The position numbers were made by a program, and so were the translations under genes. From Thermoplasmata archaeon (lineage in GTDB: Archaea; Thermoplasmatota; Thermoplasmata; WALJ01): 64,000 nucleotides of DNA. The notes beneath the pieces were generated by a model that saw only the letters and a program-made list of their open reading frames with translations, ran no database searches and was not told where the DNA came from. Position 1 is the first letter of the stretch. Each line of letters starts with the position of its first letter. Location: the NCBI GenBank assembly GCA_027006785.1, contig JALTFR010000042.1:30113-94112 (forward strand). The letters are read 5' to 3'. Positions 1 through 60,629 of this stretch are shown in pieces.

Positions 1-573
1 ATGAGGAAGGGGCACGAGGTCATATCTCTGCACATGGACAACCGCCCTTTCACGGACGATATTCATTTTGAGAAGGTCAAGATGCTTGTGAAAAGGCTTC
101 AGGAAGTGCACGGCAGGGAGATACCGCTGTATCTTGCACCCCACGGGATACCCTCCCAGGAGACAATAGCGAAGAACTGCACCCGCAGGTTCCAGTGCGT
201 GATGTGCAGGAGGATGATGTTCCGCACGGGCGAGGCCTTCGCAAGGAAGGTGGGTGCGGATGCGCTCCTCACCGGTGAATCCCTTGGACAGGTGGCATCA
301 CAGACCCTCAGGAACATAAGCACAGAGTCACAGGCCATAGACATTCCGGTCATACGGCCGCTAATCGGCTTCGACAAGGAAGAGATCATAGCGATAGCGA
401 AGGAGATAGGGACTTTCGATATCTCCATAATCCCATCGGTATGCTGCACGATAACACCTAAGAGGCCCAGCATAGATGCGAAAATAGATGACATTCTCAG
501 GGAGGAACAGAAGATAGATGTGAGCGCTCTTCTGGAGAAGGTGATGGAAGGGAGCGTTAGGGTGGATGTGTGA
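1..573 (+). CDS. thiI: tRNA sulfurtransferase / thiamine biosynthesis protein ThiI, C-terminal fragment (gene begins upstream of window)
   Basis: ThiI-specific 'LLTGESLGQVASQTLRNI' motif and C-terminal region; ORF runs from window edge. Confidence 0.8.
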   Translation: MRKGHEVISLHMDNRPFTDDIHFEKVKMLVKRLQEVHGREIPLYLAPHGIPSQETIAKNCTRRFQCVMCRRMMFRTGEAFARKVGADALLTGESLGQVASQTLRNISTESQAIDIPVIRPLIGFDKEEIIAIAKEIGTFDISIIPSVCCTITPKRPSIDAKIDDILREEQKIDVSALLEKVMEGSVRVDV

Positions 574-593
574 GAAAAAAATGCAATACGCAT

Positions 594-630
594 GCCATTC
601 GGGGAAATAATAGCAGAGAAACATATAAGG
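594..630 (+). repeat. Direct repeat copy 1 (19-nt perfect core tgccattcggggaaataat plus conserved tatataagg tail)
   Basis: Matches 4863..4900 at about 30/37 positions; sits 32 bp upstream of the mcrB-like start. Confidence 0.8.
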
Positions 631-661
631 CCTTTGAGTTTGAGAAAGAATAGGTTTATAT

Positions 662-3181
662 ATGGATGTTGCATTGCTTTTAAAAGGTGAGTGTATGATA
701 TATCATGAAGATGAATTTACTAAAATACCTTTTGACAATAGGGCAAAGGAGAGACTGAAACATATATACTCTATCTTATATTATCTTGAAAGAGGATATT
801 CCTATCGGAAATCTATCAAAGAAACACTGAAGAGATTTCCTAGAGTGCACAACGAGCCCACAATAGAATCAAAAGTTACGACAGAAATAGGTCTCAAAAA
901 AGAGAGTTTTATGGAGCTATACAAAAAGGGAGAGCTTTTGGACTACCTAATATCAAAAAATAACTTGAATGAACATGACGCCCAAATTTTTGCAGAGCTT
1001 TTGAGAGGGCATCGAATAAGAACTGATAAAAAATATTATGAGCAAAGTGCGGGAATGAACATAGAAAAGATCCTCAAACTGTGGAAAGATTCTCTAGAAA
1101 AGCAACCTGAAGGGGTACACTTTAAAACCTATTCGAGATATGCCAAAATTAAGAAAATGAAAGAAGAAGTGAGAGACTTTGTTTATGATCCTACAGAGGA
1201 AAACTTCATAAAATTCTGGAACGAAAAAGACATATATGCTGCTCAGAGGGTTGCATCTGCGCGAAATGTGTGGGATTCAAACAATTCTGAAATTTTGGTT
1301 AGAACCCTGTCTGAAATGCTGGATAGCGAAGAATTCAAAGAAGAATGGGTTGAAAATGTTAAAAATGCCCGTAAAGTTTTGTGGGAACTTTTTGGATTAT
1401 TGCATATCGAAAAGGTTCCTCCAATAAACTCATGTACTGAAAACGGACTGGAATTTTTTGGATACAGGGTTAAACAAGACTATAAAGATTTACTATCAAA
1501 ATTCAATGAATTCAAAGATGATGTTTATATGGAAAATACTGGTCACATAACCGCAGGAAAGGACTATGAAATTCCAATAAACTTGGAGATTGACCAACTC
1601 TTCAATGTGATAGATAAGGTAAAAGAGTCTGATCTGGAAAAGGCAGATACAGAAGAGGAAAGATTGCTATATGAGGCCGTTCTTAGGGCCAAAAAAGAAA
1701 TGGGATTGATATCTGAGACAGAAAAAGAGGATGAACACTATTTTTGGTTGAATGCGGACCCATCCAGATGGACAGTTGAAGAGATTCGTAACGGAGATGT
1801 GGTAACATACACTTCACATACCAAAAATGGAAACAAAAGGCACATGTATTCTGCGTTTCAGAAGGCTAAAAAAGGAGATAAGGTGATATTCTACGAGACC
1901 AGCCCTCACAGAAAGGTTGTGGCCCTGGGTATTGTTGAAAAAGGTCTGCACGAAGATTATGATGAAGAACATGGTGAAAATACAGAGGTAATTTCTATAA
2001 GATTTCTCCGAGATTTAGGTCCTATTGACAGAGAAGAATTAAAGACCGTTCCAGAATTGAGAGATTTTTTTCCATTGAAAAAAGGCGTACAAGGAAGCCT
2101 CTTTGAAATGACGGAGAGTGAATTCCATGCCATACTGAATTTCGCAGATGCTTATGAGAAAACAGAAAGGGCCTCGGGTTTGAAATGGAATGATTTAAAG
2201 CCTGTGATTAATCACCTTAATGATGAGAGATTTGAGATTGAAGGTGCGCTTTACTTCCCTTATAACATAAAGGAAGAACTTGAATTACGGATTGGTTCGG
2301 CCATCTCATCTGGAAAACACATAATCCTCATCGGACCGCCGGGAACCGGAAAATCCAAGCTTGCGAAGATGGTGTGTGAACACTACAAAGGTAAAGAAAA
2401 ATACATTATGAGCACTGCTAACTCAGATTGGTCCACCTTTGATACCATTGGAGGATACTTCCCAAGTTCTGATGGAAAACTGGAATTCAAGACCGGCATA
2501 TTCCTGAAATGTTTCCGTGACGAGGAAGGCAATGCAGATAACAAATGGCTGATAATAGATGAAATAAACAGGGCAGATATAGACAAAGCTTTTGGCTCTC
2601 TTTTCTCGGCCCTTACTGGAGATAACATAACACTGCCCTTTGAGATGAATGGAAAGCCGGTTAAAGTTATCGGAAACCCGGATGCTGAGATACCAGATAC
2701 ACCCAACTGTTTTGTGATTCCTGAAGATTGGAGGATAATAGCAACGATGAATACCTTCGATAAGTCCTCGCTCTATGAGATGAGCTATGCGTTCATGAGG
2801 CGCTTTGCTTTCATACCTGTTGGTGTGCCTGATGAGATCAGAGAGGATGATATTCGAAGGTATCTTAAATCCTGGAACTGCGAGAATGAAAGAATAGACA
2901 AAAAGAAACTTCTTGATATATGGCAGTCTGTCAATAAGATAAGAAAGATAGGTCCTGCCATCGTAAAAGATATATGTGAATTTGTAATCCGCACAGGTGA
3001 TGATTATGCCAGTGCAATTATCATGTATGTTCTCCCTCAGTTTGAGGGCTTGTCTGATGAAAAAATAATTTCGTTTATGAAAGACATAAGGGAAATCACC
3101 GGAGAGGCTGGGGCGGATAAAATAGAAAAATTCTCCTATGATTTCTTCTCGATTGAAAGGGTCGCTGAGAAGGAGTCCTGA
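662..3181 (+). CDS. mcrB: McrB-like GTPase (AAA+ of McrB family) with N-terminal uncharacterized ~340-aa domain and central EVE/PUA-like domain
   Basis: Walker A 'LIGPPGTGKSKLA'; McrB signatures 'IIDEINRADI' and 'ATMNTFDKS...FMRRFAF' (compare MNTADRS / RRRF); EVE-like 'KKGDKVIFYETSP...GSLFEMTESEFHAI'; 4-nt gap to McrC. Confidence 0.75.
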   Translation: MDVALLLKGECMIYHEDEFTKIPFDNRAKERLKHIYSILYYLERGYSYRKSIKETLKRFPRVHNEPTIESKVTTEIGLKKESFMELYKKGELLDYLISKNNLNEHDAQIFAELLRGHRIRTDKKYYEQSAGMNIEKILKLWKDSLEKQPEGVHFKTYSRYAKIKKMKEEVRDFVYDPTEENFIKFWNEKDIYAAQRVASARNVWDSNNSEILVRTLSEMLDSEEFKEEWVENVKNARKVLWELFGLLHIEKVPPINSCTENGLEFFGYRVKQDYKDLLSKFNEFKDDVYMENTGHITAGKDYEIPINLEIDQLFNVIDKVKESDLEKADTEEERLLYEAVLRAKKEMGLISETEKEDEHYFWLNADPSRWTVEEIRNGDVVTYTSHTKNGNKRHMYSAFQKAKKGDKVIFYETSPHRKVVALGIVEKGLHEDYDEEHGENTEVISIRFLRDLGPIDREELKTVPELRDFFPLKKGVQGSLFEMTESEFHAILNFADAYEKTERASGLKWNDLKPVINHLNDERFEIEGALYFPYNIKEELELRIGSAISSGKHIILIGPPGTGKSKLAKMVCEHYKGKEKYIMSTANSDWSTFDTIGGYFPSSDGKLEFKTGIFLKCFRDEEGNADNKWLIIDEINRADIDKAFGSLFSALTGDNITLPFEMNGKPVKVIGNPDAEIPDTPNCFVIPEDWRIIATMNTFDKSSLYEMSYAFMRRFAFIPVGVPDEIREDDIRRYLKSWNCENERIDKKKLLDIWQSVNKIRKIGPAIVKDICEFVIRTGDDYASAIIMYVLPQFEGLSDEKIISFMKDIREITGEAGADKIEKFSYDFFSIERVAEKES

Positions 3182-3182
3182 T

Positions 3183-4541
3183 ATGCCGGCAAAAGTCAAT
3201 GAAGAAACCATACTGAATGAAATCTCGGCAGATATCCCGCACTATCTTAGAAATGGAAGGATAGATGAGGTTATGAAATCTGCCGCAGAAGCGGATTTGA
3301 ACATAAAGGACCTGGACAGGCTTTTGAGGATACACTTCGTTCTTACAGAAAAGGTGAAAGAGTTCTCGGAAAAACTCGAAGGAAGGATAAGAAGAATAAA
3401 AACAACCGTCAGTTCACACAAGAGTGAATATCGAGGGCAGGTGAGAGGGCGCATATCATGGAAAGATACTTTTTCCAGAAGAATGGCCACAAATCCGCTG
3501 GATAAGACACTTTTCATGTGCGTTGAAAGGGAAAGGGAATATAATATCCCTGAAAACCTTGTGCTTAAACGAATTCTCCAGATAATCCACGATATAGTCT
3601 ATTCTGACCTGAAACCCGCCATAGACGGAAGATATAACTGGGTTGATATCTGGAGTGATGAAAAAGGTGTGAAAGAGGTTCTAAATTCGATTTATTTTAA
3701 GAATATATATCTGAAAAGGGTTTCTCTGGAGGACCTCCACATAACTGAGAACATGATTCAAAGGGCCAAAAAATCCAGGCAACCGCTTTATCGAGATGCT
3801 GCATATCTTCTGGAAAGGTACCGAAAGATAACAGGATATAACATAGACGAATCTGAAGCCCGTGAGCTCTTGAAGAACACATTCATAAAGCCTGAGAAAA
3901 CAGAGGAGCTTTTTGAGCTGTATTGGATAATAAAAATTATGAACTCCTTCGGAAAGGAAATCTGGAAGAAGCCCATTATTGAAAAAGACAACGATTCAGT
4001 CATTGCTGAAGGAATGTTTGGAGATTTCAGGTATGTTATTTATCACAACTCCACAGGCAGCTTTCATTTTCATGAAAAACTTCCTGATGACAATGATGAT
4101 CTTGCAAAAATCAATAAAGCATATCCGTTTTTGGCGAGAGAGGCGAAAGTTGTGGAAAAACTGAACGGGATGGTGGGTGTGGATGAAAATAGTCTCTGGG
4201 GTGGTCGCCCAGATATAGTGATAGAAAAATATCACAAAAACAGTGACGATCTCGTTTCTGTCTTCATAGCTGAAGTGAAATACACAAACAATAAACGCTA
4301 TGCGATTGAAGGACTGAAGGAACTTCTGGAATATCTGGCTTTTATAAAGAAAAATGAAGAATATCTGGAAAAGTTCAATTCGCTTTTTGAAGGACTTGAA
4401 AAGGTTAAAGGCGGTCTTTTCACAGACCAGATAGACAAATTTTCCATTTCTGAAGATGAGAAAATCTTCCACATCATGTTCGGGGATTCAGAAGATAAGA
4501 TACGAAAAAGGATTGTTGAACCTACGCCGGATATGGAATAG
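3183..4541 (+). CDS. mcrC: McrC-like nuclease subunit (N-terminal McrC domain with 'RGRISW' motif; C-terminal PD-(D/E)xK nuclease)
   Basis: ATG 1 nt after mcrB stop; 'YRGQVRGRISW'; C-terminal 'GRPDIVIEKY...FIAEVKY' PD..ExK motif. Confidence 0.7.
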   Translation: MPAKVNEETILNEISADIPHYLRNGRIDEVMKSAAEADLNIKDLDRLLRIHFVLTEKVKEFSEKLEGRIRRIKTTVSSHKSEYRGQVRGRISWKDTFSRRMATNPLDKTLFMCVEREREYNIPENLVLKRILQIIHDIVYSDLKPAIDGRYNWVDIWSDEKGVKEVLNSIYFKNIYLKRVSLEDLHITENMIQRAKKSRQPLYRDAAYLLERYRKITGYNIDESEARELLKNTFIKPEKTEELFELYWIIKIMNSFGKEIWKKPIIEKDNDSVIAEGMFGDFRYVIYHNSTGSFHFHEKLPDDNDDLAKINKAYPFLAREAKVVEKLNGMVGVDENSLWGGRPDIVIEKYHKNSDDLVSVFIAEVKYTNNKRYAIEGLKELLEYLAFIKKNEEYLEKFNSLFEGLEKVKGGLFTDQIDKFSISEDEKIFHIMFGDSEDKIRKRIVEPTPDME

Positions 4542-4862
4542 CTTCACTTAAATTTGATTCTTTACCTCTCTTCACCATCCTCTACACCTATCCATGCTCT
4601 CCCCTAACCCATTTCCTTTCCCTTCAGTTTTTCGATCCAGTGGAGGCTCTTCTCCATATCCCCTTTCCTTCCCATCTCCCTGAACATCTCAAGGCTTTCC
4701 TGCAGGTACTCCATGCCCTGCTCTCCCCCTGTGACGATGCCTTTCAGCCTGAGGTACCATCCCTGCCTCTCCCGAGATGAAAAGCGTGCGCCCATGCCCG
4801 CCTTCGGCATCCCTGAGGAGTGAATCCAGTTTCCCGAGCTCTGCCCCCCGGTCCGCAATGCC

Positions 4863-4900
4863 TGCCATTCGGGGAAATAATGGTATAAAGGTATATAAGG
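4863..4900 (+). repeat. Direct repeat copy 2 (same 19-nt core plus tatataagg tail)
   Basis: Identical core to 594..612; sits 250 bp upstream of the OLD-family gene. Confidence 0.8.
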
Positions 4901-5149
4901 GGTTTGGGGGGTAGATGTATATCTGTTATTTCAGAGGAAGAGCGCTCGGAGAGATAGATTTATATAATGAAAAGGCATAGTGTGGGTAAGATGATATGAT
5001 AAAGAGCGAAGGAGAACTGATGGTTTCGGTTAATCAAAAAAAGAGGAAAAGAACATGAGCAAGATTGCTACACGATTTGCCATAACATCGGTTAAACGGC
5101 TTCACACAGTGAATGCGCAGATTTTCAATAATCTTAGTGAGGAATAAGT

Positions 5150-6877
5150 ATGAAAATAAATACATTTTCAATAAAAAACTATAGATCAATCGTTGATAAA
5201 CAAGAGATAACTCTAAAAGATTTATCTATAATTATAGGTCCTAATAACGAAGGAAAATCTAACATATTAAACGCAATTACTTCTGCATTATCTATCTTAA
5301 AATCGTATGAGTATTCTTTCACCCACCTACTACGAAGATATTATCGAAAAATAGATCGTGATGAGCATACATCTTCTAGTTATGAAAGGACATCTTCTTA
5401 TAAGTGGGAGCGGGATTTTCCAATAAAGATGCAAGGCGAGAATAAGGATGGTAAGACGGTCTTCGAAGTCGTTTTTGATTTTACAAACGAAGAACTGAAA
5501 GATTTGAATAAATTAACTGGACTGAATCTCAATTACGATATTATTTTCACTTTGGAATTAGGAAAAGACTCAGAAAATATTAGTATAAATTATCCCGCAA
5601 ATCGTCGAATAAATTTGAACAAACGAAAAATAAAAATTTTAGAATATGTATCTCAACACATTGCTATTGAATATATCGGTTCTGTAAGAACTGCAGAAAG
5701 GACTGCTGACTTGATTGATAGTCTTATTAGAAGAGAACTTAATCAATTGGAATATAAAGCCGAATATGAACGGCTCTTAAAACGCTTAGAAAAAATGCAA
5801 GAACCCGTGTTAAAGAAAATATCAAAAGAGGTTAGCAAAAGCATTAAACAATTTTTGCCAAATGTGAAAAAGGTAGAAGTAACTTCTGTTGACCGCGTGA
5901 GGCGAATAATGCACGAATCATGTGAAGTTTATGTAGATGATGGAGATAAAACTCCGTTAGAATTAAAAGGTGATGGAATAAAGAGTCTGTTGGCCATATC
6001 ACTTATGCAACATCTTGCTAAGCAGAGGCATACTAACCAAGATATAGTGTTTGCTATTGAAGAGCCTAAAATTCATCTGCATCCCGATTCAATCCATAAA
6101 TTAAAAGAAGTTTTACTAGAGATATCTGAGCAATATCAAGTTATATTAACTACACATTCACCCATTTTTGTAGACAGAGGGCATCTTGATAGAAATATTC
6201 TTGTAACAAAAAATAAAATAAAAACGGTTCATGATATTTCTGAGATTAGAAACGAATTGGGCATCAGGGTTTCCGACAATTTGAAATCCGCCAGTCTAGT
6301 AATATTAACCGAAGGAGAAAACGATATTCAAATATTGAAATCGTGGTTGTTTGAAATGTCACCCAAGGTTAGAGATGCTTATGCCCGTGGGTTGTTTGCT
6401 TTCGCATCCATGGGTGGGTGTAAAAATCTTTCATATCAGGTAAACTTGCATCGGAATTTGATTTGCAGTGTATTGGTTTATCTGGATGCAGATTCTGACG
6501 GGAAATCTGCATACGAGAAAGCAAAAAGTGATGGTCTCCTTACAGATAAAGAAGTGTTCTTTCCTATTATCCGGTCATTCCGTGAAACGGAGATAGAAGA
6601 TTTAGTTAAAATTAGTATATATAAAAAAAATATTGAAGATAAATACGGGGTTAAATTGGAACGCGATATTTTCAAAAATAATAAAAATAAATGGTCTGTG
6701 AGAATTGGGGGGGTGTTTGAAAAGCAAGGAAAACTGTGGACTGGTGACATTGAGGCAGATGTAAAAAAAATAGTATGTGATGCAGTAGTAAGGGATGGTT
6801 TAAGAAGTCTAAAGCAGACTAACGCAGGTTCTATCAAAAATCTACAAAAAAGGATAGAAGAAGAATTAAATCTCTGA
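5150..6877 (+). CDS. OLD-family ATP-dependent nuclease (AAA_15/ABC-type ATPase + C-terminal TOPRIM); GajA-like, no helicase partner
   Basis: P-loop 'IIIGPNNEGKSNILNAI'; 'GDGIKSLLAISL'; Walker B 'IVFAIEEPKIHLHP'; H-loop 'ILTTHSP'; TOPRIM 'LVILTEGENDIQIL' and 'YLDADSDGKS'; SD tgagga upstream. Confidence 0.75.
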   Translation: MKINTFSIKNYRSIVDKQEITLKDLSIIIGPNNEGKSNILNAITSALSILKSYEYSFTHLLRRYYRKIDRDEHTSSSYERTSSYKWERDFPIKMQGENKDGKTVFEVVFDFTNEELKDLNKLTGLNLNYDIIFTLELGKDSENISINYPANRRINLNKRKIKILEYVSQHIAIEYIGSVRTAERTADLIDSLIRRELNQLEYKAEYERLLKRLEKMQEPVLKKISKEVSKSIKQFLPNVKKVEVTSVDRVRRIMHESCEVYVDDGDKTPLELKGDGIKSLLAISLMQHLAKQRHTNQDIVFAIEEPKIHLHPDSIHKLKEVLLEISEQYQVILTTHSPIFVDRGHLDRNILVTKNKIKTVHDISEIRNELGIRVSDNLKSASLVILTEGENDIQILKSWLFEMSPKVRDAYARGLFAFASMGGCKNLSYQVNLHRNLICSVLVYLDADSDGKSAYEKAKSDGLLTDKEVFFPIIRSFRETEIEDLVKISIYKKNIEDKYGVKLERDIFKNNKNKWSVRIGGVFEKQGKLWTGDIEADVKKIVCDAVVRDGLRSLKQTNAGSIKNLQKRIEEELNL

Positions 6878-6909
6878 GATTATCGCTTATTGAAAACAAC
6901 TCTATCCAT

Positions 6910-8283
6910 TCACTCAAACCGCACCTTCTGCCCCTCTTTGCTGTCCTCTATGATGATGCCGAGCGCCTTTAATCTGTCCCGTATCATGTCGGATGTCGCC
7001 CAGTCCCTATTCTCCCTTGCCTGCTTCCTTATGTCCAGAAGTATCTGTATTATCTCCATCTCCTTTCCCGATGACTGAGCGCTCGCGAAGAGATTGATTC
7101 CGAGGACATCTGCGATTTCCTTTGCTATTTTCAGGTATCCGGCTGTGAGGTTGGGGTTGTCCCTGTGCTTGTTGGCCTCGCTGAAGAGTGAGAAAAGGTT
7201 CGCTATGGCCTCCCTCGTGTTGAAGTCGTCGTCCATGACCTCGATGAACCTCTCCCTGAACTTCACGGCCTCCGAGATGTCCGGTTCGGAATCGCCGGCC
7301 ATTTCTTTGAGGGAGAGAGCGCTCCGCTTCATACTCTGCAAGGCCCTGTGAGTTTCTTCCAGATCATCGAAGCTGAAGTCTATCGGGCTCCTGTAATGCG
7401 TGTAAAGGAAGTAGAACCTGAGGGTGTCAGCGGGATACGTCTTCATCATCTCCCGTATGTTCAGGACATTTCCGAGGGACTTCGACATCTTCTCCCCTTT
7501 CAGGTTCAGGAATCCGGTGTGCAGCCAGTACCTCACGAAGGGCTCCTTTCCGCTGATGCTCTCCGCTATTGCTATCTCGGATTCGTGGTGCGGGAATATC
7601 AGGTCCTGCGCTCCCCCGTGCAGGTCATATTGCTCCCCGAAGTATGTGAATGTTATAGCCGTGTCCTCCACATGCCAGCCCGGCCTTCCCTTTCCCCAGG
7701 GCGATTCCCACCAGGGCTCTCCCTCCTTGTAGGCCTTCCAGAGCGCAAAGTCCTCGGGGTTCCTCTTGTTCTCGTCCGGGGCCACCCTTGCGCCGGCCTG
7801 AAGCTCGTCCATCTTCTGCCCGGACAGCTTCCCAAATCCTCCGAACTTGTTCACCTCGAAGTACACGCTCCCGTTGGATTCGTAGGCATATCCCTTCTCT
7901 ATGAGGGCCTGAACCTGACCGATTATCTCATCTATGTGGTCCGTGGCATTCGCATAAAGGTTCACGGAAGTGACACCCAGCGCCTCCATGTCCTCCATAA
8001 AGGCCTTTGTGTACTGCATAGCGAGTTCCTTTACGCTTATTCCCCTCTCGTTGGCCCTCTGTATCATCTTATCGTCAATGTCGGTGATGTTCATGAGATA
8101 GAATACCTGATATCCCCTGAACCTCAGGTATCTGGCTATCGCATCGAATGCGACATATGTTCTGGCATGGCCTATGTGTGGCATATCGTAGACCGTGGGG
8201 CCGCAGACGAACATGTTGACCCTGTTCCTCTTTATCGGCCTGAACTCTTCCTTCTCTCTTGTCAGCGTGTTGTATACCTGCAT
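6910..8283 (-). CDS. cysS: Cysteinyl-tRNA synthetase
   Basis: 'MQVYNTLTREKEEF' N-terminus; HIGH 'MPHIGHARTY'; KMSKS 'GEKMSKSLGN'. The ORF track extends to 8571 across the tRNA, so the downstream ATG is preferred. Confidence 0.85.
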   Translation of the reverse strand: MQVYNTLTREKEEFRPIKRNRVNMFVCGPTVYDMPHIGHARTYVAFDAIARYLRFRGYQVFYLMNITDIDDKMIQRANERGISVKELAMQYTKAFMEDMEALGVTSVNLYANATDHIDEIIGQVQALIEKGYAYESNGSVYFEVNKFGGFGKLSGQKMDELQAGARVAPDENKRNPEDFALWKAYKEGEPWWESPWGKGRPGWHVEDTAITFTYFGEQYDLHGGAQDLIFPHHESEIAIAESISGKEPFVRYWLHTGFLNLKGEKMSKSLGNVLNIREMMKTYPADTLRFYFLYTHYRSPIDFSFDDLEETHRALQSMKRSALSLKEMAGDSEPDISEAVKFRERFIEVMDDDFNTREAIANLFSLFSEANKHRDNPNLTAGYLKIAKEIADVLGINLFASAQSSGKEMEIIQILLDIRKQARENRDWATSDMIRDRLKALGIIIEDSKEGQKVRFE

Positions 8284-8296
8284 GAGATCACCGGAG

Positions 8297-8369
8297 TGGG
8301 CGAGGAGGGAATCGAACCCCCAGAAACCCGATCTGCAGTCGGGCACATTAGCCACTCTGTCACTCGCCC
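8297..8369 (-). tRNA. tRNA-Cys (anticodon GCA)
   Basis: Manual fold: 7-bp acceptor GGGCGAG/CTCGCCC; anticodon stem CCCGA/TCGGG; loop CTGCAGA (U33, GCA, R37); T-arm GGGGG-TTCGATT-CCCTC; 14 nt upstream of cysS on the same strand; discriminator reads A. Confidence 0.65.
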
Positions 8370-8472
8370 TTGCAGGCTGCGATTGGTATGCAGTATATGA
8401 AACTTTAGGAAAGTATGCGGAGATATCCTTAAATATTGTCTCCCTCTTTAGCACCAAAGGATGGTATAAGAA

Positions 8473-8763
8473 TTGACAGACATAAAACGACTCGTACTGG
8501 ATGTGCTTAAGCCCCACCACCCTTCCATCGTGGAGGTGTCTGAGAAACTGAGCGCTCTGAAAGGAGTGCATGGAGTGAACTGCAGCCTAGAAGAGGTTGA
8601 CCAGGAGACAGAGAGCATAAAGATAACAATAGAGGGAGATCACCTCGATTTTGACAGGATAAAGCTCACACTTGCCGACCTAGGAGCCGATATTCACTCC
8701 ATAGACAGTGTTTCGTCAGGCAGAAGAATAGTAGAAGAGGTCGAGACACCTCAGGACCGTTAA
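8473..8763 (+). CDS. DUF211-family small archaeal protein
   Basis: 'LVLDVLKPHHPSIVE...GVHGVNCSLEEVD...ITIEGDHLDFD...IHSIDSV' pattern; apparent TTG start. Confidence 0.5.
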   Translation: MTDIKRLVLDVLKPHHPSIVEVSEKLSALKGVHGVNCSLEEVDQETESIKITIEGDHLDFDRIKLTLADLGADIHSIDSVSSGRRIVEEVETPQDR

Positions 8764-9062
8764 TTCTCTTTCTCTTCCCTGTTATTTTTTATTATTTCAC
8801 CTACTTTTTTAAGAAGTTCTTGTTTCTTCATATCTGTGCTTACAAGAACCCTTCCCTCTTCCCTCCACCAGTGGGGGGGATATCGAACGTCATATTCCAC
8901 CGAATATTCCATACCCATCGATTTTACGGCGGAAAATATCTCAGGAAGCTTGGGATTCTCAACTGCAAGTGCCTTTGGAACCCTTCTTCCAGAACTTCTT
9001 TTAAGATGTGAATTGAAATAGGATGGCCAGAGGACCTTTTTGCCCTCTTTCCTTGAGACCAT
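8760..9062 (-). CDS. srp19: Signal recognition particle protein SRP19
   Basis: 'VLWPSYFNSHLKRSSGRRVPKALAVENPKLPEI' (archaeal SRP19 signature). Confidence 0.7.
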   Translation of the reverse strand: MVSRKEGKKVLWPSYFNSHLKRSSGRRVPKALAVENPKLPEIFSAVKSMGMEYSVEYDVRYPPHWWREEGRVLVSTDMKKQELLKKVGEIIKNNREEKEN

Positions 9063-9063
9063 A

Positions 9064-9444
9064 TCACTCCACCAGGACAGCGTTTATCGCTCCGTCCTGA
9101 CCGGGCCTTGAGGTTATCTTCGCATTGCCCACAGATGTCTTGATTATGGCTCCTTTGGTTATGATATTCCTCTGCACATAGTTCGGGTTCGCCGGATTCT
9201 CAACAACCGTTATTATCTCGGCCCTGACTGTCTTTCCTGTCTTAGGATCCCTTACATTTGCGTGATTCTCGGAGAGGATGCGCACCCTCGTGTTTCCTCC
9301 TCTTCCTCTCACTTTCTTTGTCCTCCTGTCACCTATGACAGCTGTCTGGAGCTCCGCCCCTATCTCGTACTTCCTCTTCTTTCTGAAGGAGTGATACCTT
9401 CCTCCTGTGGATTTCCTCACGGATCTGCCTTGCCAGAGAGCCAT
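9064..9444 (-). CDS. rps8e: 30S ribosomal protein S8e
   Basis: 'MALWQGRSVRKSTGGRYHSFRKKRKYEIG' N-terminus typical of S8e. Confidence 0.85.
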   Translation of the reverse strand: MALWQGRSVRKSTGGRYHSFRKKRKYEIGAELQTAVIGDRRTKKVRGRGGNTRVRILSENHANVRDPKTGKTVRAEIITVVENPANPNYVQRNIITKGAIIKTSVGNAKITSRPGQDGAINAVLVE

Positions 9445-9535
9445 GTTTTCACCTTTTCAGCGCCTATGAATACATTTGTTATATAAGCCTTGCTGGGAGA
9501 GTCGTACCGATGAATGGCACATATTGATGGGAAAG

Positions 9536-9543
9536 TTTAAATA
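9536..9543 (+). promoter_or_regulatory. TATA-like box (tttaaata-gg) in the S8e/dnaG divergent intergenic region
   Basis: Same T(A/T)TAAATAGG motif as upstream of 5S rRNA and the pilus ATPase; about 170 nt upstream of the preferred dnaG ATG. Confidence 0.3.
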
Positions 9544-9711
9544 GGTGTGCCACTAAGACTAATTGAAAATAGTCTATCACATCATTCCTTCATAAATTCA
9601 CATTCACTCTCAAACATGTCAGCTCAATATCCGAAAAACCCGGATTGGGGCATTAAGAGCAGCAGTACGAGGGAGAGATTTGTGGATGGACTATTTTCAG
9701 GAGATGATCAT

Positions 9712-11007
9712 ATGATCGACCCGAGTACAACGAAATACCTGATAAAAGCACATATAACCGCAGAAGGAGTTGTGGAAAAACCTGACGTGATAGGGGCCAT
9801 ATTCGGACAGACCGAGGGTCTTCTGGGAGAGGAACTGGACCTCAGGGATCTTCAGAAAGGCGCCAGGATAGGAAGGATAGAAGTAGAAGTGAAATCTGAG
9901 GGTGGAAAGTCACGAGGAGAGGTTCTGATACCATCTAGCCTTGACCAGGTTGACACCGCAATACTGGCCGCAGCCCTTGAAACTATAGACAGGATAGGGC
10001 CGTGTAAGGCCACGGTTTATGTTGAGAGCATAGCTGATGTAAGGGCTGAAAAGAGGCAGAAGATACTTGAAAGGGCGAAGGAGCTTCTGACAGACATGCT
10101 TCAGGAGTCCAAGACACTAGGAGGAAGCCTCGCTGATTCCATCAGAGACTCAGTTCACCTCGAAGAGATAACGAGTTACGGACCGGAAAAATGTCCTGCA
10201 GGACCTCTTGTGGACGTATCGGATGAGATTCTGATCGTTGAGGGCAGGTCTGATGTACTGAACTTGCTGAAACATGGAATAAAGAATACAATAGCCGTTG
10301 AAGGGACCAATGTTCCAAAGACAATACAGGAACTCAGCAAACAGAAGACCGCAACCGCATTCGTTGATGGGGACCGAGGCGGCACACTGATACTTAAGGA
10401 ATTGCTTCAGGTAGCTGAGATAGACTTCATAGCCAGAGCCCCACCGCACAACGAGGTGGAAGAACTTACTAGAAAACAGATAATGAAGGCCCTTAAAAAC
10501 AAAATGCCTGTTGCACAGTATATAGAGATGTATGGCATAGATAATGGCAGTACAAAGGATGCTCAGGAGAAAAAAGAGCCTCAGAACGGGAAGAACGGCA
10601 AAGGGAAGAATGACAACCAGATTGCACAGAAAAAAGATGAGAAAAAGGCACAGAAACCCGAGAAACAGGCCTCTAAGGAGAAAGAAAAGGAAGAGAAAAG
10701 GAAGAAACTCACGCCTCAGCAGGAGAAATTCTACGAGATGCTGAGAGATATGGCTGGAAAGAAGAAGGCAAGACTCCTGAACTCAAAAGGAGGAATAGTA
10801 ACGGAAGTTGCCACCGATGATCTGATAAAAATTCTTGGAAATGAAAAGAAATCCGTGAATGCGATAGTCTTCGACGGAGTGATAACTCAGAGGCTTGTGG
10901 ATATGGCTTACAAAAAAGGAGTTAAAATGATAGTTGGCATCAAAATGGGAAATGTGGCAAAACTTCCGTCTTCAATATCTGTGTGGACGAAAAAGGACTT
11001 TGAATGA
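9712..11007 (+). CDS. dnaG: Archaeal DnaG-type primase (TOPRIM), with a lysine/glutamate-rich insert
   Basis: 'MIDPSTTKYLIKAHITAEGVVEKPDVIGAIFGQTEGLL'; TOPRIM 'ILIVEGRSDVLNL...AVEGTN...FVDGDRGG'; SD aggag 8 nt upstream. The ORF track start at 9547 adds 55 atypical residues. Confidence 0.8.
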   Translation: MIDPSTTKYLIKAHITAEGVVEKPDVIGAIFGQTEGLLGEELDLRDLQKGARIGRIEVEVKSEGGKSRGEVLIPSSLDQVDTAILAAALETIDRIGPCKATVYVESIADVRAEKRQKILERAKELLTDMLQESKTLGGSLADSIRDSVHLEEITSYGPEKCPAGPLVDVSDEILIVEGRSDVLNLLKHGIKNTIAVEGTNVPKTIQELSKQKTATAFVDGDRGGTLILKELLQVAEIDFIARAPPHNEVEELTRKQIMKALKNKMPVAQYIEMYGIDNGSTKDAQEKKEPQNGKNGKGKNDNQIAQKKDEKKAQKPEKQASKEKEKEEKRKKLTPQQEKFYEMLRDMAGKKKARLLNSKGGIVTEVATDDLIKILGNEKKSVNAIVFDGVITQRLVDMAYKKGVKMIVGIKMGNVAKLPSSISVWTKKDFE

Positions 11008-11040
11008 GCGCGAATGCTCAAACACTCAAACCACTTACTC

Positions 11041-11051
11041 TTTTTTATTTT
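11041..11051 (+). terminator. Oligo-T tract between convergent dnaG and membrane-protein gene
   Basis: ttttttatttt immediately after the dnaG stop. Confidence 0.35.
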
Positions 11052-11069
11052 CGAAATAAAAAGTGGGAA

Positions 11070-11450
11070 TCACTTGATTCTTAGCTTTTTCTTCTTCTCG
11101 TTAAGTCTGTCCTCATATTCCTCTCCCAGATGCCATGCGATATCCTCCAGGTCCGGGAGGTTCCGCGTGAACTTCGATTTGCTGTTTGTCTCCATGAGAT
11201 CTTCAAACTTCTTCATCTTCCTTCTTGTGTCATAGAAGTACCATCCTCCGATGATAACGCCGAACGACGATAGAAGCAAAATCCAGTAATTCCATGCACC
11301 TATCGTGTTTATAGGTTTGTTTACCTCGTCGGGAAGATAGCTTTCTAACATAAAATATGAGAGAGATATCACCATACCTGCGATGCTGATTGCCAGTAGC
11401 GTTCCGGACAATACCAGGGCATGCTTTCTCATCCATTTTATTGCGCTCAT
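11070..11450 (-). CDS. Small membrane protein (2 TM plus charged C-terminal tail), hypothetical
   Basis: Two hydrophobic segments ('LVLSGTLLAISIAGMVISL', 'WNYWILLLSSFGVIIGGWYF'); internal ATG preferred over the track start 11591. Confidence 0.4.
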   Translation of the reverse strand: MSAIKWMRKHALVLSGTLLAISIAGMVISLSYFMLESYLPDEVNKPINTIGAWNYWILLLSSFGVIIGGWYFYDTRRKMKKFEDLMETNSKSKFTRNLPDLEDIAWHLGEEYEDRLNEKKKKLRIK

Positions 11451-11518
11451 GGGTTCACCGTCTGCGAGATATCTGCAGGGAATATATATGGTTTGGGGGC
11501 GAGAGCAGGGGGAAAGTT

Positions 11519-11534
11519 TATTAATGAATTCATT
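11519..11534. promoter_or_regulatory. Perfect 16-bp palindrome TTAATGAATTCATTAA about 45 bp upstream of the giant surface-protein gene
   Basis: Read directly; lies in the divergent intergenic region; candidate dimeric-regulator site. Confidence 0.4.
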
Positions 11535-11575
11535 AATCAATGAAAATACCCGGAGGGTATAACTGAGGAGATACG

Positions 11576-14500
11576 ATGAAAAAAATAGCATTAGCAGTCA
11601 GTATGATTCTTCTGCTGGGTTCTCTGTTCCCGGCAATTGTGATACTTGATGGAGAGGTAAGGGCAGAGCGCAGCAGTGAACCGGAAATAAAGTATACTTT
11701 GCATGCTCCCATAAGGATAGAGAACGATACGGATTTCGCAAACCAGGCGACGAGCGAAGGTTGGAGCGGAGATGGGAGCTCAGGAAATCCTTATCTGATA
11801 GAGAACTATGAGATAGACGCTCATGGGTCTGGAAGTGCCATTTACATTGGAAATACTACGGTTCATTTTACAATACGCTCATGTTATTTTTACAATACGA
11901 GTGATGTTTCATACCCGTATTATTATGGTTCTGGGTTGACCCTCCGTAATGTGACGACGGGAGTTGTGGAATCCAGCAGGATATGGAACAATGAGAACTA
12001 CGGGGTCTTTATGCAGTATTCGATGGGAGTCGTTGTATCCGGCAATAACATATCATACAATGACCAGAGAGGAATATATCTTATGGAATCCGTGAACAAT
12101 ACCATAGAGAACAACGGAATGTATGCTAACCAGTGGTATGGAATAGATCTCTCCACATATTCGAACAACAACAGCATCATAAACAATACCATACTGCGCA
12201 CGGCATCGCACGGCATCTCACTGTCCAACTGTAATGATACGGTTATAAGTAACAATACCATAAAGTACAACTCGCATTACGGGAGCATAGACCTCTCATA
12301 CTCGCTCGGGGCCGTGATAAAGAATAACACGATGGAAGACTATGACAGCCATGGTGGGATATATGTTTCAGGAGACCAGATGAGATACTGGAACACACAC
12401 GACATAGATACGAGCAATATCCTGAAAGGCAAGCCTGTCTACTACTGGAAGGACCGCACATCGGGTAGTGTTCCTTCGGATGCGGCGCAGGTCATCCTCG
12501 CCAACTGTTCGGGCGTATCTGTAGAGAACATGAACATCAGTATGGTTTACGAGGCCATACAGCTGGGTTTCTCAGACAAGAATCACATAAAAAATGTAAG
12601 CCTCTACAAAGATTCGTGGGGCGTGAGACTGCTGTATTCGGACCATAACATCCTTTCGGATAGCGAGATAAGAAACAATGATGACGGCATATGGATAGAC
12701 AGGTGCACGGAGAACACCATAAGGAACAACACCGTCGCGGATTCGAACTATTATGGAATATACATGGCTAGTTTTGATACGACCCCTGTTGTGTGGGGAA
12801 ACTCTTTCTACCACAATAATCTTATAAACAATGCGCATCAGTTATATTATAGCAGTAACAATGAAATAGACAGATGGAACCTGGCATATCCGCAGGGCGG
12901 GAATTTCTGGTCGAACTACAACGGTAACGATATCGAATGCGGAGAATCGCAGAACATATCCGGAAGCGATGGGATGGGGGATAGCCCTCTGACAATATAC
13001 GGGAATCAGGATGCATATCCGCTGATGGCGGCATGGGAAACAGCGCCAAAGGTCATCTCAAGCACCCCCGCAGACGGAGAGAATTCCGTTGCACTGGGAA
13101 AGAACATAAGCATCGTCTTCAGCAGGAGCATGAACACTTCGGTAATTCCCAAACTTCACCAGATAGATGGAACGGGTGTTGTCTATTCATTTTCTGGATG
13201 GTCCAGCACAAATCTGGAGAACGACACCGCAACATGGACTCATGATGACTGGAATGAGAAGGAATGGGTGGGCCTGGAACTCTGCAATTACTCCGATACT
13301 GAAGAGCGCTACGGATTGCCACACATATGGTCATTCAAGACAGTGGACCTCACTGCGCCCCATGTGTCATCGACTGACCCTGCAGACGGGGAGGCTTCCG
13401 TTTCTCTCGCTCAGGATGTGAAGGTCGTCTTCGATGAAAGCCTGGACACATCCGTCATTCCACAGTTCAGCGAACTGAGTTCTTCGGGAGTATCTTACAC
13501 CTTTGCGGGTTTTTCATCCACAAATGAAAATAACGACACCGCAACATGGACGCACGGTTCATGGCCCGAAAAATACGCGGTGGAACTGAAGGTCACGGGG
13601 GCAGAGGACAGCTCCGGTAATGTGATGGGTACGGCATATGTCTGGAACCTCACCACGGCCGACCTGACACCGCCGAATGTGATTGGGACAGAACCATATG
13701 ATGGAGAGACAGGTGTCAACAAATCGGTATCCATAGTGGTAGTGTTTTCGGAAGAGATGAACACTTCATACAATTCCGGCCACCCGACCCTTATTCTGGA
13801 GAACGGAACATACGGCGGAAGCTGGACATTCCTCGGGTGGAGCAGCACGAATGTTATGAACGATACGGCCAGATGGTCACATGATCCCTTCGAGGAAAGG
13901 GACAGGATATCACTGAGGGTGCAGAACTATGCGGACCTTGCGGGAAATGCGGGAAGCCCGTATGAATGGACATTCTACACCGAGGATACCCAGGCGCCTT
14001 CGATTACAAAGACAACCCCTGAACAGGGGGATTCCGGTGTGAACGAGAACGAGAATGTCACGATAACCTTCTCAGAAAGCATGAACACATCCGCACCACC
14101 GGTTATTACGCAGACCGGGGGAAATCCCGTAAATTACACATTCTCCCACTGGGAGAGCGTTTATGTGGCAAACGACACGGCCATCTGGACCCATGACCCA
14201 TGGTCATCGGAAGACTCCGTAACCCTCATGGTTTCAAATTACAGCGACCCTGCAGGGAACATCGGTGTCAATTACACATGGTCATTCGACATAAGAGACT
14301 ATGTGGGGCCCCATGTCCTGTCCACGGACCCTGCGGACGGCGATGTGTGGGTTCCTCTGGACAAGGTGGTTACCGTGGTCTTCTCAGAAACCATGAGCTA
14401 TGCCAGGGTCTATGGAGAAGTGGGGGTCACATACACATTCCTCGGATGGAGCACGACCTATGTCCACAATGACACCGGTATGTGGAGCCACACAAACTGG

Positions 14501-60507: not shown

Positions 60508-60629
<122 letters not shown>

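Follow-up and report, generated by a model that had tools for sequence, protein, structure and literature searches.

We analysed a stretch of 64,000 nucleotides (nt) from contig JALTFR010000042.1 of a Thermoplasmata archaeon, referred to below as the window, and concentrated on three adjacent plus-strand genes between thiI and cysS: gene 1, encoding an McrB-type GTPase, gene 2, encoding its candidate McrC-like partner, and gene 3 (old), encoding a nuclease of the OLD family. The interval is probably a small defence hotspot, with two nuclease systems that are independent of each other and foreign in composition, and with one decayed gene. An original prediction, made from the letters of the window without database searches, had described the three genes and their surroundings (thiI, cysS, tRNA-Cys, SRP19 and S8e), and the open reading frame (ORF) list and the annotation bear it out in this respect.

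Gene structure and composition of the interval

The ORF list contains the three plus-strand ORFs at 662-3181, 3138/3183-4541 and 5150-6877. The length of 839 amino acids (aa) originally given for gene 1 holds for the longest ORF, whereas the real start is most likely the ATG at 695, which yields 828 aa. Upstream of this ATG lie GGTGAG and a TTTATATA box, a protein starting there lines up with its homologues at the N-terminus (MIY/MVY...), and in a separate assembly of the same organism (L001, from ENA) gene 1 is called with 828 aa and gene 2 with 452 aa, separated by a 1-nt spacer. We therefore take 695-3181 and 3183-4541 as the genes; a single nucleotide likewise separates the stop of gene 1 from the start of gene 2 in the window. 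The 452-aa product of gene 2 is identical to a database protein (P0001), and exact-protein look-ups with the 839-aa ORF and with P0127 returned no match. The principal features are the following:

1-573: 3' part of thiI, the gene left of the cluster
590-636, no strand assigned: direct repeat D1, first and orphan copy, in the space that separates the thiI stop from the start of mcrB
695-3181, plus strand: gene 1, mcrB-like, 828 aa (longest ORF from 662, 839 aa)
3183-4541, plus strand: gene 2, McrC-like, 452 aa (longest ORF from 3138)
4604-4868, minus strand: pseudogene, internally deleted remnant of an AAA_16/TPR NTPase gene
4860-4906, no strand assigned: direct repeat D1, second copy, joined to the start of the pseudogene
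5021-5149, plus strand: leader of the OLD cassette, conserved, containing a 30-codon ORF (5055-5147)
5150-6877, plus strand: gene 3, old, 575 aa
6910-8280, minus strand: cysS, about 456 aa, a length as in relatives

The G+C content (GC) is 0.383 in mcrB, 0.393 in gene 2 and 0.332 in old, compared to 0.531 in thiI, 0.535 in cysS and 0.484 in the window, and GC at third codon positions (GC3) is 0.27-0.42 in the cluster versus 0.68-0.74 in the flanking genes. With GC values of 0.33-0.39 between flanks of 0.53, the cluster is compositionally foreign. It displays the combination of atypical composition (GC, GC3) and variable presence among relatives (L002, L004 and L005, see below) by which genomic islands are recognised. 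No integrase or transposase genes were found in window positions 1-12000, and neither att-type repeats nor an insertion at a tRNA gene were observed. A scan for sigma-70 promoters and terminators gave no excess over shuffled sequences, the sigma-70 model not being applicable to archaea.

The McrB-type GTPase and its McrC-like partner

Judged by its sequence, gene 1 encodes an McrB-type GTPase with a predicted four-part architecture, in which two modules here named N1 and N2, an EVE domain and the GTPase follow one another:

695-1039, plus strand: N1 module, residues ~1-115, all-helical
1061-1732, plus strand: N2 module, residues ~123-346, all-helical, with the motifs WELFG..H...P..N and EIDQLFNVIDKV
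1742-2140, plus strand: EVE (PUA-like) domain, of the modified-base reader type
2186-3178, plus strand: McrB GTPase (AAA+) domain, following EVE
2333-2356, plus strand: Walker A, GPPGTGKS, in the GTPase
2549-2575, plus strand: Walker B, LIIDEINRA, in the GTPase
2747-2767, plus strand: signature MNTFDKS (NxxD), residues 685-691

The original placement of gene 1 in the McrB family, with an EVE domain, is upheld by Pfam (AAA_5, E = 3.1e-17, 63.3 bits against a cut-off of 22; EVE, PF01878, E = 2e-9, 38 bits against a cut-off of 23, profile positions 3-144 of 145) and by comparison with PDB sequences, in which E. coli McrB (6hz4_A and 6ut6_A) was matched at 1.1e-14 and the Thermococcus gammatolerans protein (6ut3_A) at 1.2e-12. 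The NCBIfam model of E. coli McrB (NF008457) aligned with the GTPase core only, at 9.9e-16 and 57.5 bits; its equivalog cut-off of 637 bits is far from reached, and we therefore regard gene 1 as a member of the McrB family and not as an ortholog of EcoKMcrB. The NxxD motif, defined as an McrB signature in PMC11090510, is invariant across three aligned homologues and places gene 1 in the canonical NxxD clade rather than in the NxD/CoCoNuT clade of that study. CoCoNuT systems combine an NxD-clade McrBC with long coiled-coil fusions; in models of residues 1-359 of gene 1 (N1-N2) and of the whole gene 2 product the helices are short to medium (the longest has 25 residues) and no extended coiled-coil domain is seen, as judged from the models and without a coiled-coil predictor.

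The approximately 350 residues upstream of EVE comprise two separable modules. The reader region, originally described as a novel N-domain plus EVE, thus consists of three modules, and neither N1 nor N2 is unique to gene 1. Pfam covers neither of them. N1 (AlphaFold2 model, mean predicted confidence pLDDT 90.8) shares 47% identity with the N-terminus of 227-aa HNH endonucleases, and in an exhaustive HMMER search it turned up in fusions with HNH, NOV_C, Mrr_N, CSD/Zn-finger domains and other McrB GTPases, one of which additionally possesses MrcB_N. N2 defines this McrB subfamily; it was present in about 100 clusters in an equally exhaustive search and was joined to an McrB-type AAA_5 domain in all nine full-length proteins checked, some of which also carry EVE or MrcB_N. 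Both modules occur together in just two clusters besides gene 1.

EVE occupies a variable slot between N2 and the GTPase, which is empty in the relative L002. A protein of 883 aa (P0248), representing the sole N1+N2 McrB cluster besides the L002 type, has a different, unannotated insert in this slot (alignment columns ~350-600), which suggests that the slot serves as an exchangeable reader cassette. EVE-McrB proteins are the commonest EVE fusions (Bell et al., PMC7641849; PMC11090510), and gene 1 shares with them an EVE domain fused N-terminally to the McrB GTPase. It differs from the catalogued cases in the position of EVE, which comes third after two other modules and in a slot of variable content, and in that N1 and N2 lie outside Pfam.

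Structural comparison provides a lead, and a lead only, on the nature of N2: its model appears to resemble HhH-GPD DNA glycosylases modestly. Among the glycosylases matched, the 8-oxoguanine glycosylase of T. maritima (3n0u_A) scored 7.7 (151 residues aligned, 18% identity), followed by Pa-AGOG and MagIII (5.2 each), Pab-AGOG (4.9), MutY (4.8), two entries of endonuclease III (4.6 and 4.5), NTHL1 (4.3) and Mag1 (4.2). No link between N2 and glycosylases was detected at the sequence level, neither with an N2 profile against PDB nor in Pfam scans of 19 N2 sequences. The near-invariant P-x-x-N…FFG of N2, with P-x-x-N at residues 242-245, might match what we take to be the Asp-containing segment of HhH-GPD proteins, with Asn replacing Asp. 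It is conceivable, albeit doubtful, that N2 derives from an HhH-GPD glycosylase domain, has possibly lost catalysis and acts as a base-flipping reader. These enzymes would then pair it with an exchangeable EVE-type reader and work with an McrC clade that branches deeply and escapes every present annotation and defence-finder profile. In PMC11090510 we came across no glycosylase-like module.

The product of gene 2 consists of an N-terminal helical and beta-hairpin region and a C-terminal PD-(D/E)xK nuclease, whose predicted motifs are invariant in 40 homologues:

4209-4214, plus strand: P343-D344, predicted nuclease motif
4272-4280, plus strand: E364-V-K366, predicted nuclease motif

The protein has no match in Pfam, NCBIfam, PADLOC or among PDB sequences. 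A profile of 40 family members against PDB and individual Pfam scans of these members were equally negative, and none of the McrC models (PF10117 McrBC, PF04411 PDDEXK_7, PF09823 DUF2357 and the NCBIfam and PADLOC equivalents) matches gene 2 or any of the 40. DUF6826 was considered and rejected for the family, as its weak matches, in 9 of the 40 members, remain below the cut-off and cover the nuclease core only.

The assignment of gene 2 to McrC is instead made on predicted fold, motif and conserved gene order. The model (pLDDT 81.6) has a PD-(D/E)xK core preceded by a long beta-hairpin (residues ~75-119) and a helical bundle, as in McrC. In a Foldseek search against PDB, ranks 1, 2, 3 and 5 were taken by McrC chains of two organisms (6hz4_M, 6ut6_G, 6ut7_G and 6ut5_G), with E = 3.6e-5 and probability 1.0 for 6hz4_M; the alignments are full-length (~460 columns), with TM-scores of just 0.20-0.28. 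Homologues of gene 2 lie directly 3' of McrB-like AAA_5 genes in L002 (Thermoplasmata), in Haloarchaeobius salinus (L083) and in a Chloroflexota metagenome-assembled genome (L084). Fold, the PD…ExK motif, gene order and the 1-nt gap thus sustain the original identification of gene 2 as McrC, while the profile check proposed for it, with PF10117 and PF04411, fails.

The failure of all McrC models would also be expected if gene 2 were an unrelated PD-(D/E)xK nuclease recruited to an AAA+ GTPase, analogous to McrBC and operating through a different coupling mechanism. We deem this unlikely: the top full-length Foldseek alignments are all to McrC chains, the McrC-type hairpin and helical bundle precede the nuclease in the model, and the sole local hhalign match between gene 2 and E. 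coli McrC (27 columns) falls on the G-x-x-RGRI stretch of the latter. Moreover, its partner is a bona fide NxxD McrB GTPase. Taking fold, motif and gene order together, we consider it very likely that the gene 2 product works like McrC.

Relatives of gene 2 are widespread. Among 8000 candidates scored, 250 matched at E ≤ 0.001, ranging over Haloarchaea, Asgard archaea, Chloroflexota, Planctomycetes and Zixibacteria, and where the source names them they are nearly always "hypothetical protein". A viral origin of the family was considered and rejected, no relatives being present in IMG/VR. In the Haloarchaeobius locus (L083 3361-13395) the pair, with an EVE+AAA_5 McrB of 877 aa, stands beside PDDEXK_4, an AAA_14/DUF4143 ATPase and a gene with a Piwi domain (prokaryotic Argonaute), a neighbourhood that looks like a defence island.

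Genes 1 and 2 would accordingly constitute a divergent Type IV (McrBC-like) restriction pair. With the McrBC systems of E. coli K-12 and T. gammatolerans (PDB 6HZ4, 6UT6, 6UT5) they share the AAA+ GTPase with Walker A, Walker B and NxxD, the N-terminal readers, and a tightly spaced downstream PD-(D/E)xK partner of McrC-like predicted overall fold. They differ in the reader region, which is N1+N2+EVE here and ADAM/DUF3578 in E. coli McrB, and in a partner that lacks detectable similarity to McrC profiles. By analogy with these two systems, the putative nucleic-acid-reading modules before the NxxD GTPase, i.e., helical N1, helical and possibly glycosylase-like N2, and EVE, may bind modified bases of invading DNA. 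The GTPase would hexamerise, the McrC-like protein would place its N-terminal hairpin region into the McrB ring and stimulate GTP hydrolysis, and its PD-ExK domain would then cut the DNA.

The OLD nuclease and its relation to the McrBC pair

The assignment of gene 3 to the OLD family, as a solitary gene, agrees with the original prediction. Pfam AAA_15 is matched at 7e-30 (105 bits), PADLOC favours Old (1.6e-36) over the GajA models (1.6e-23), and the PDB matches are Thermus scotoductus OLD (1.3e-11) and GajA (8.5e-11). The following catalytic elements are recognisable:

5237-5263, plus strand: Walker A of the ABC ATPase, G30..K36-S37
6053-6085, plus strand: EEP..H, E304-E305-P306 and H309
6149-6163, plus strand: H-loop, H336
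6302-6331, plus strand: Toprim, E388-G-xx-D392
6479-6505, plus strand: Toprim, D446xD448
6584-6604, plus strand: Toprim, E481/E483/D484

An alignment of 32 sequences shows no variation at the Walker A, EEP/H, H-loop, E-G-x-x-D, DxD and E/E/D residues, and gene 3 retains all of them. Class 1 OLDs are known to stand alone, with changing neighbours, in archaea as well as bacteria (PMC12796447; PMC7049728). Their Toprim domain lacks the alpha-helical insertion of other classes. Like phage P2 Old and the OLDs of T. scotoductus (6P74) and Vibrio cholerae, gene 3 encodes a single polypeptide of ~575 aa with ABC ATPase and Toprim parts and intact catalytic residues, and it is likewise a stand-alone gene in a variable neighbourhood (PMC7049728, PMC12392090, PMC12796447). 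It differs from the solved Class 1 OLDs in its archaeal host and in a low identity, the match of E 1e-11 covering the ATPase part only. No helicase, reverse transcriptase (as in retrons) or AriB gene adjoins old at the locus; there is no helicase after it because the next downstream gene is the convergent cysS. Resemblance to the Class 2 OLD GajA of Gabija extends over residues 1-407 (E ~1e-10), but the adjacent GajB/UvrD-like helicase that defines Gabija is missing. By its sequence features, gene 3 appears to be an intact stand-alone OLD ATPase/Toprim nuclease that, having no such partner gene beside it, fits the published Class 1 definition. Its ABC ATPase would control a two-metal Toprim nuclease that, extrapolating from T. 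scotoductus and V. cholerae OLD, may nick or cleave DNA during infection.

The closest homologues of gene 3 reside on low-GC contigs of other organisms, and full-length relatives occur in bacteria and on viral contigs, the latter with 32-37% identity. This distribution bears on whether old is a defence gene at all, as an archaeal OLD class with an essential, non-defence role is known from Sulfolobales (PMC12796447), and old might be a housekeeping ATPase/nickase of the cell cycle similar to Cran1. However, Cran1 is limited to Sulfolobales and has a conserved neighbourhood (PMC12796447). The absence of old from the closest assembled relative, its extreme GC3 of 0.27 and the occurrence of its close homologues on low-GC contigs of unrelated organisms, as well as in bacteria and on viral contigs, render membership in the Cran1 class extremely unlikely.

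The gene belongs to a compact unit. The OLD cassette (~5021-6880) has 74% nucleotide identity to metagenome contigs with a GC of 0.37, including ~130 nt upstream of the start codon, where old possesses its own TTTATATA box and GAGGA. This leader is ~74% identical to the regions upstream of OLD homologues on three unrelated contigs (L170-L172) and partially present in a fourth (L173), with conserved blocks AAACGGCTTCAC ... ATTTTCAATAA and counterparts at L170 187-337 and L173 251-299. Its 30-codon ORF was considered as an OLD partner gene in view of the nucleotide conservation in L170-L172. Mismatches are spread evenly across the codon positions (9/9/10), and we therefore do not accept the ORF as coding; the leader may act in regulation or as an RNA instead of encoding a peptide. 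The contig of the second assembly (L001) ends at window position 5286, 137 nt into old, which could reflect strain-level presence or absence of OLD or a drop of coverage in a low-GC region.

The co-occurrence of McrBC and OLD had been put forward as a plausible and little-studied combination. McrBC and OLD are adjacent, on the same strand and both low in GC, and cooperation among defence genes of an island happens sometimes, so the three genes might form one integrated system in which, e.g., OLD acts as a back-up or abortive effector when McrBC is inhibited. Yet ~600 nt (4542-5149) with a pseudogene on the opposite strand lie between gene 2 and old, each system has its own TATA-like and Shine-Dalgarno-like elements, and GC differs between them (0.33 in old, 0.39 in McrBC). 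McrBC-like pairs occur without OLD in L002 and in the Haloarchaeobius and Chloroflexota loci, and OLD homologues (38-70% identity) have unrelated neighbours, e.g., a HEPN protein or an unknown protein of 775 aa. Viral contigs contain OLD relatives and, in IMG/VR, no members of the McrC-like family. Neither the locus nor the neighbourhoods of homologues support a coupling, and an integrated system is very improbable; we regard McrBC and OLD as neighbours, not partners. That their combination is of special interest is not borne out. EVE-McrB fusions and Class 1 OLD defence are both already on record (PMC7641849, PMC11090510, PMC12392090).

History and significance of the locus

Scans of genome contigs and of metagenome contigs with CysS yielded one close relative in which the interval is fully assembled (L002, equal to L003 and L090) and two further contigs (L004 and L005) that end after cysS and a 5S rRNA gene. 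In L002 the CysS protein is 90% identical, and the interval contains an N1-N2-GTPase McrB lacking EVE (56% and 68% identity in two aligned parts) and a gene 2 homologue of 48% identity, but no OLD; the flanking proteins are 75-93% identical, and the McrBC pair is also low in GC (0.40-0.41). The gene orders compare as follows, with (-) marking minus-strand genes:

L002: thiI, 89-aa ORF, aminotransferase(-), AAA_16/TPR(-), two small ORFs, McrB, McrC-like, cysS(-)
window: thiI, [repeat], McrB, McrC-like, AAA_16/TPR remnant(-), [repeat], OLD, cysS(-)

The content of the cluster is non-core and variable, in line with the original prediction of an island, and the same three genes do not recur between thiI and cysS in all relatives, although the nearest assembled relative has the McrBC pair in common. 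The notion of an island wedged between conserved neighbours requires revision, as a diverged McrBC pair already occupies the same interval in L002 and the junction of convergent thiI and cysS is itself lineage-specific. In more distant Thermoplasmata (L006 1638-3779, L007 1005-2982) cysS is followed by thiI on the same strand within ~100-150 nt, from which we conclude that the convergent arrangement of the window is derived. Contigs L004 and L005 (CysS 87-88% identical) carry a 5S rRNA gene 40 nt past cysS before they end:

L004 9091-9212: 5S rRNA
L005 6020-6141: 5S rRNA
window 60508-60629: 5S rRNA

The ~53.6 kb that separate cysS from 5S rRNA in the window point to an inversion of about this size, one breakpoint of which would coincide with the boundary between island and cysS.

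The original prediction overlooked two features that document rearrangement: the pseudogene in the gap between the systems and the repeat D1 around McrBC. The pseudogene (4604-4868, minus strand) corresponds to a gene for an AAA_16/TPR NTPase that is intact in L002 (959 aa), with 63% identity in tblastn. Window positions 4619-4760 match the 3' end of that gene and 4757-4800 its 5' end; ~2.5 kb are missing between the retained ends, which identifies the remnant as a pseudogene. Its GC is host-like (0.573). A known defence STAND protein was considered for the AAA_16/TPR gene and dismissed, as PADLOC matches generic TPR models only.

The two copies of D1 (47 nt, 79% identical), the only flanking repeat, bracket McrBC and the pseudogene. 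In the window their 19-nt core TGCCATTCGGGGAAATAAT is present exactly two times, against 0 expected by chance, and among the fetched loci it was found only in the second assembly of the same organism (L001), in both copies. Read on the minus strand, D1 contains the promoter-like region of the AAA_16/TPR gene, with a TATA-like box, together with the opening codons (ATGGCA). It thus represents the 5' end of the decayed gene and its promoter in duplicate, which rules out an att site, for which the repeat might be taken. D1 suggests a duplication or rearrangement. The gene order of the window would be produced by tandem duplication followed by deletions, or by cassette exchange, neither of which we favour.

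These observations also bear on how long McrBC has resided at the locus. In L002 the thiI-cysS interval likewise contains a homologous, low-GC N1-N2-GTPase McrB together with gene 2, which may indicate that the pair is a vertically inherited, fast-evolving resident, not a repeatedly exchanged cassette, and that only OLD is a recent arrival. Such a history is well worth considering, if not quite probable. It has to contend with the different order relative to the AAA_16/TPR gene in the two genomes, with the duplicated promoter fragment that brackets the McrBC module in the window, with an identity of 48-68% in the McrBC proteins as opposed to 75-93% in the flanking ones, and with the presence of EVE in just one of the two genomes. 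In the history that we propose for the hotspot, OLD would have been acquired from a low-GC donor in the form of a compact cassette, internal deletion would have removed the AAA_16/TPR gene that stood between the systems, and the McrBC module would have been rearranged along with a duplicated copy of the AAA_16/TPR promoter region.

The analysis itself establishes which domains, motifs and predicted folds are present, in what order the genes stand, what their base composition is and how the locus varies among relatives. Several points nevertheless weigh against interpreting the interval as a hotspot with two defence systems. Gene 2 lacks sequence-profile similarity to any McrC model, and its hhalign comparison with E. 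coli McrC is not significant. The Pfam model OLD-like_TOPRIM remains below threshold in gene 3 itself (E 0.036; 15.1 bits against 23.2), and is above threshold at the same position in the homologues P0140 and P0230 (37-42% identity to gene 3). The term "variable" rests on few genomes, since the interval is fully assembled in one close relative only, and the biochemical activities and targets of both systems are all drawn by analogy.

We regard three things as mildly new: an McrC-like family that is widespread yet escapes current profiles, the unannotated candidate reader modules N1 and N2, and the possible glycosylase-like fold of N2. As the Pfam, NCBIfam and PADLOC models miss the McrC-like family, the counts for this McrBC subtype in defence censuses are probably too low, above all in archaea. 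The repertoire of Type IV restriction gains two uncharacterised candidate readers in N1 and N2, and a derivation of N2 from a DNA glycosylase, if true, would link the folds of base-excision repair to modification-dependent restriction. Apart from these families the locus represents routine gene flux at a defence hotspot and opens no long-standing question.

On the right of the cluster, the tRNA-Cys gene lies beyond cysS and is followed by genes for DUF211, SRP19 and S8e:

8296-8369, minus strand: tRNA-Cys

It was the only match of an Rfam search over window positions 1-12000. The mechanically derived cysS ORF (6910-8571, minus strand, 553 aa) extends upstream across tRNA-Cys, the real gene having ~456 aa. 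Further downstream, at 11576-17437 on the plus strand, a protein of 1953 aa is encoded that contains numerous internal repeats and is hydrophobic in a segment at its C-terminus, presumably a surface protein.

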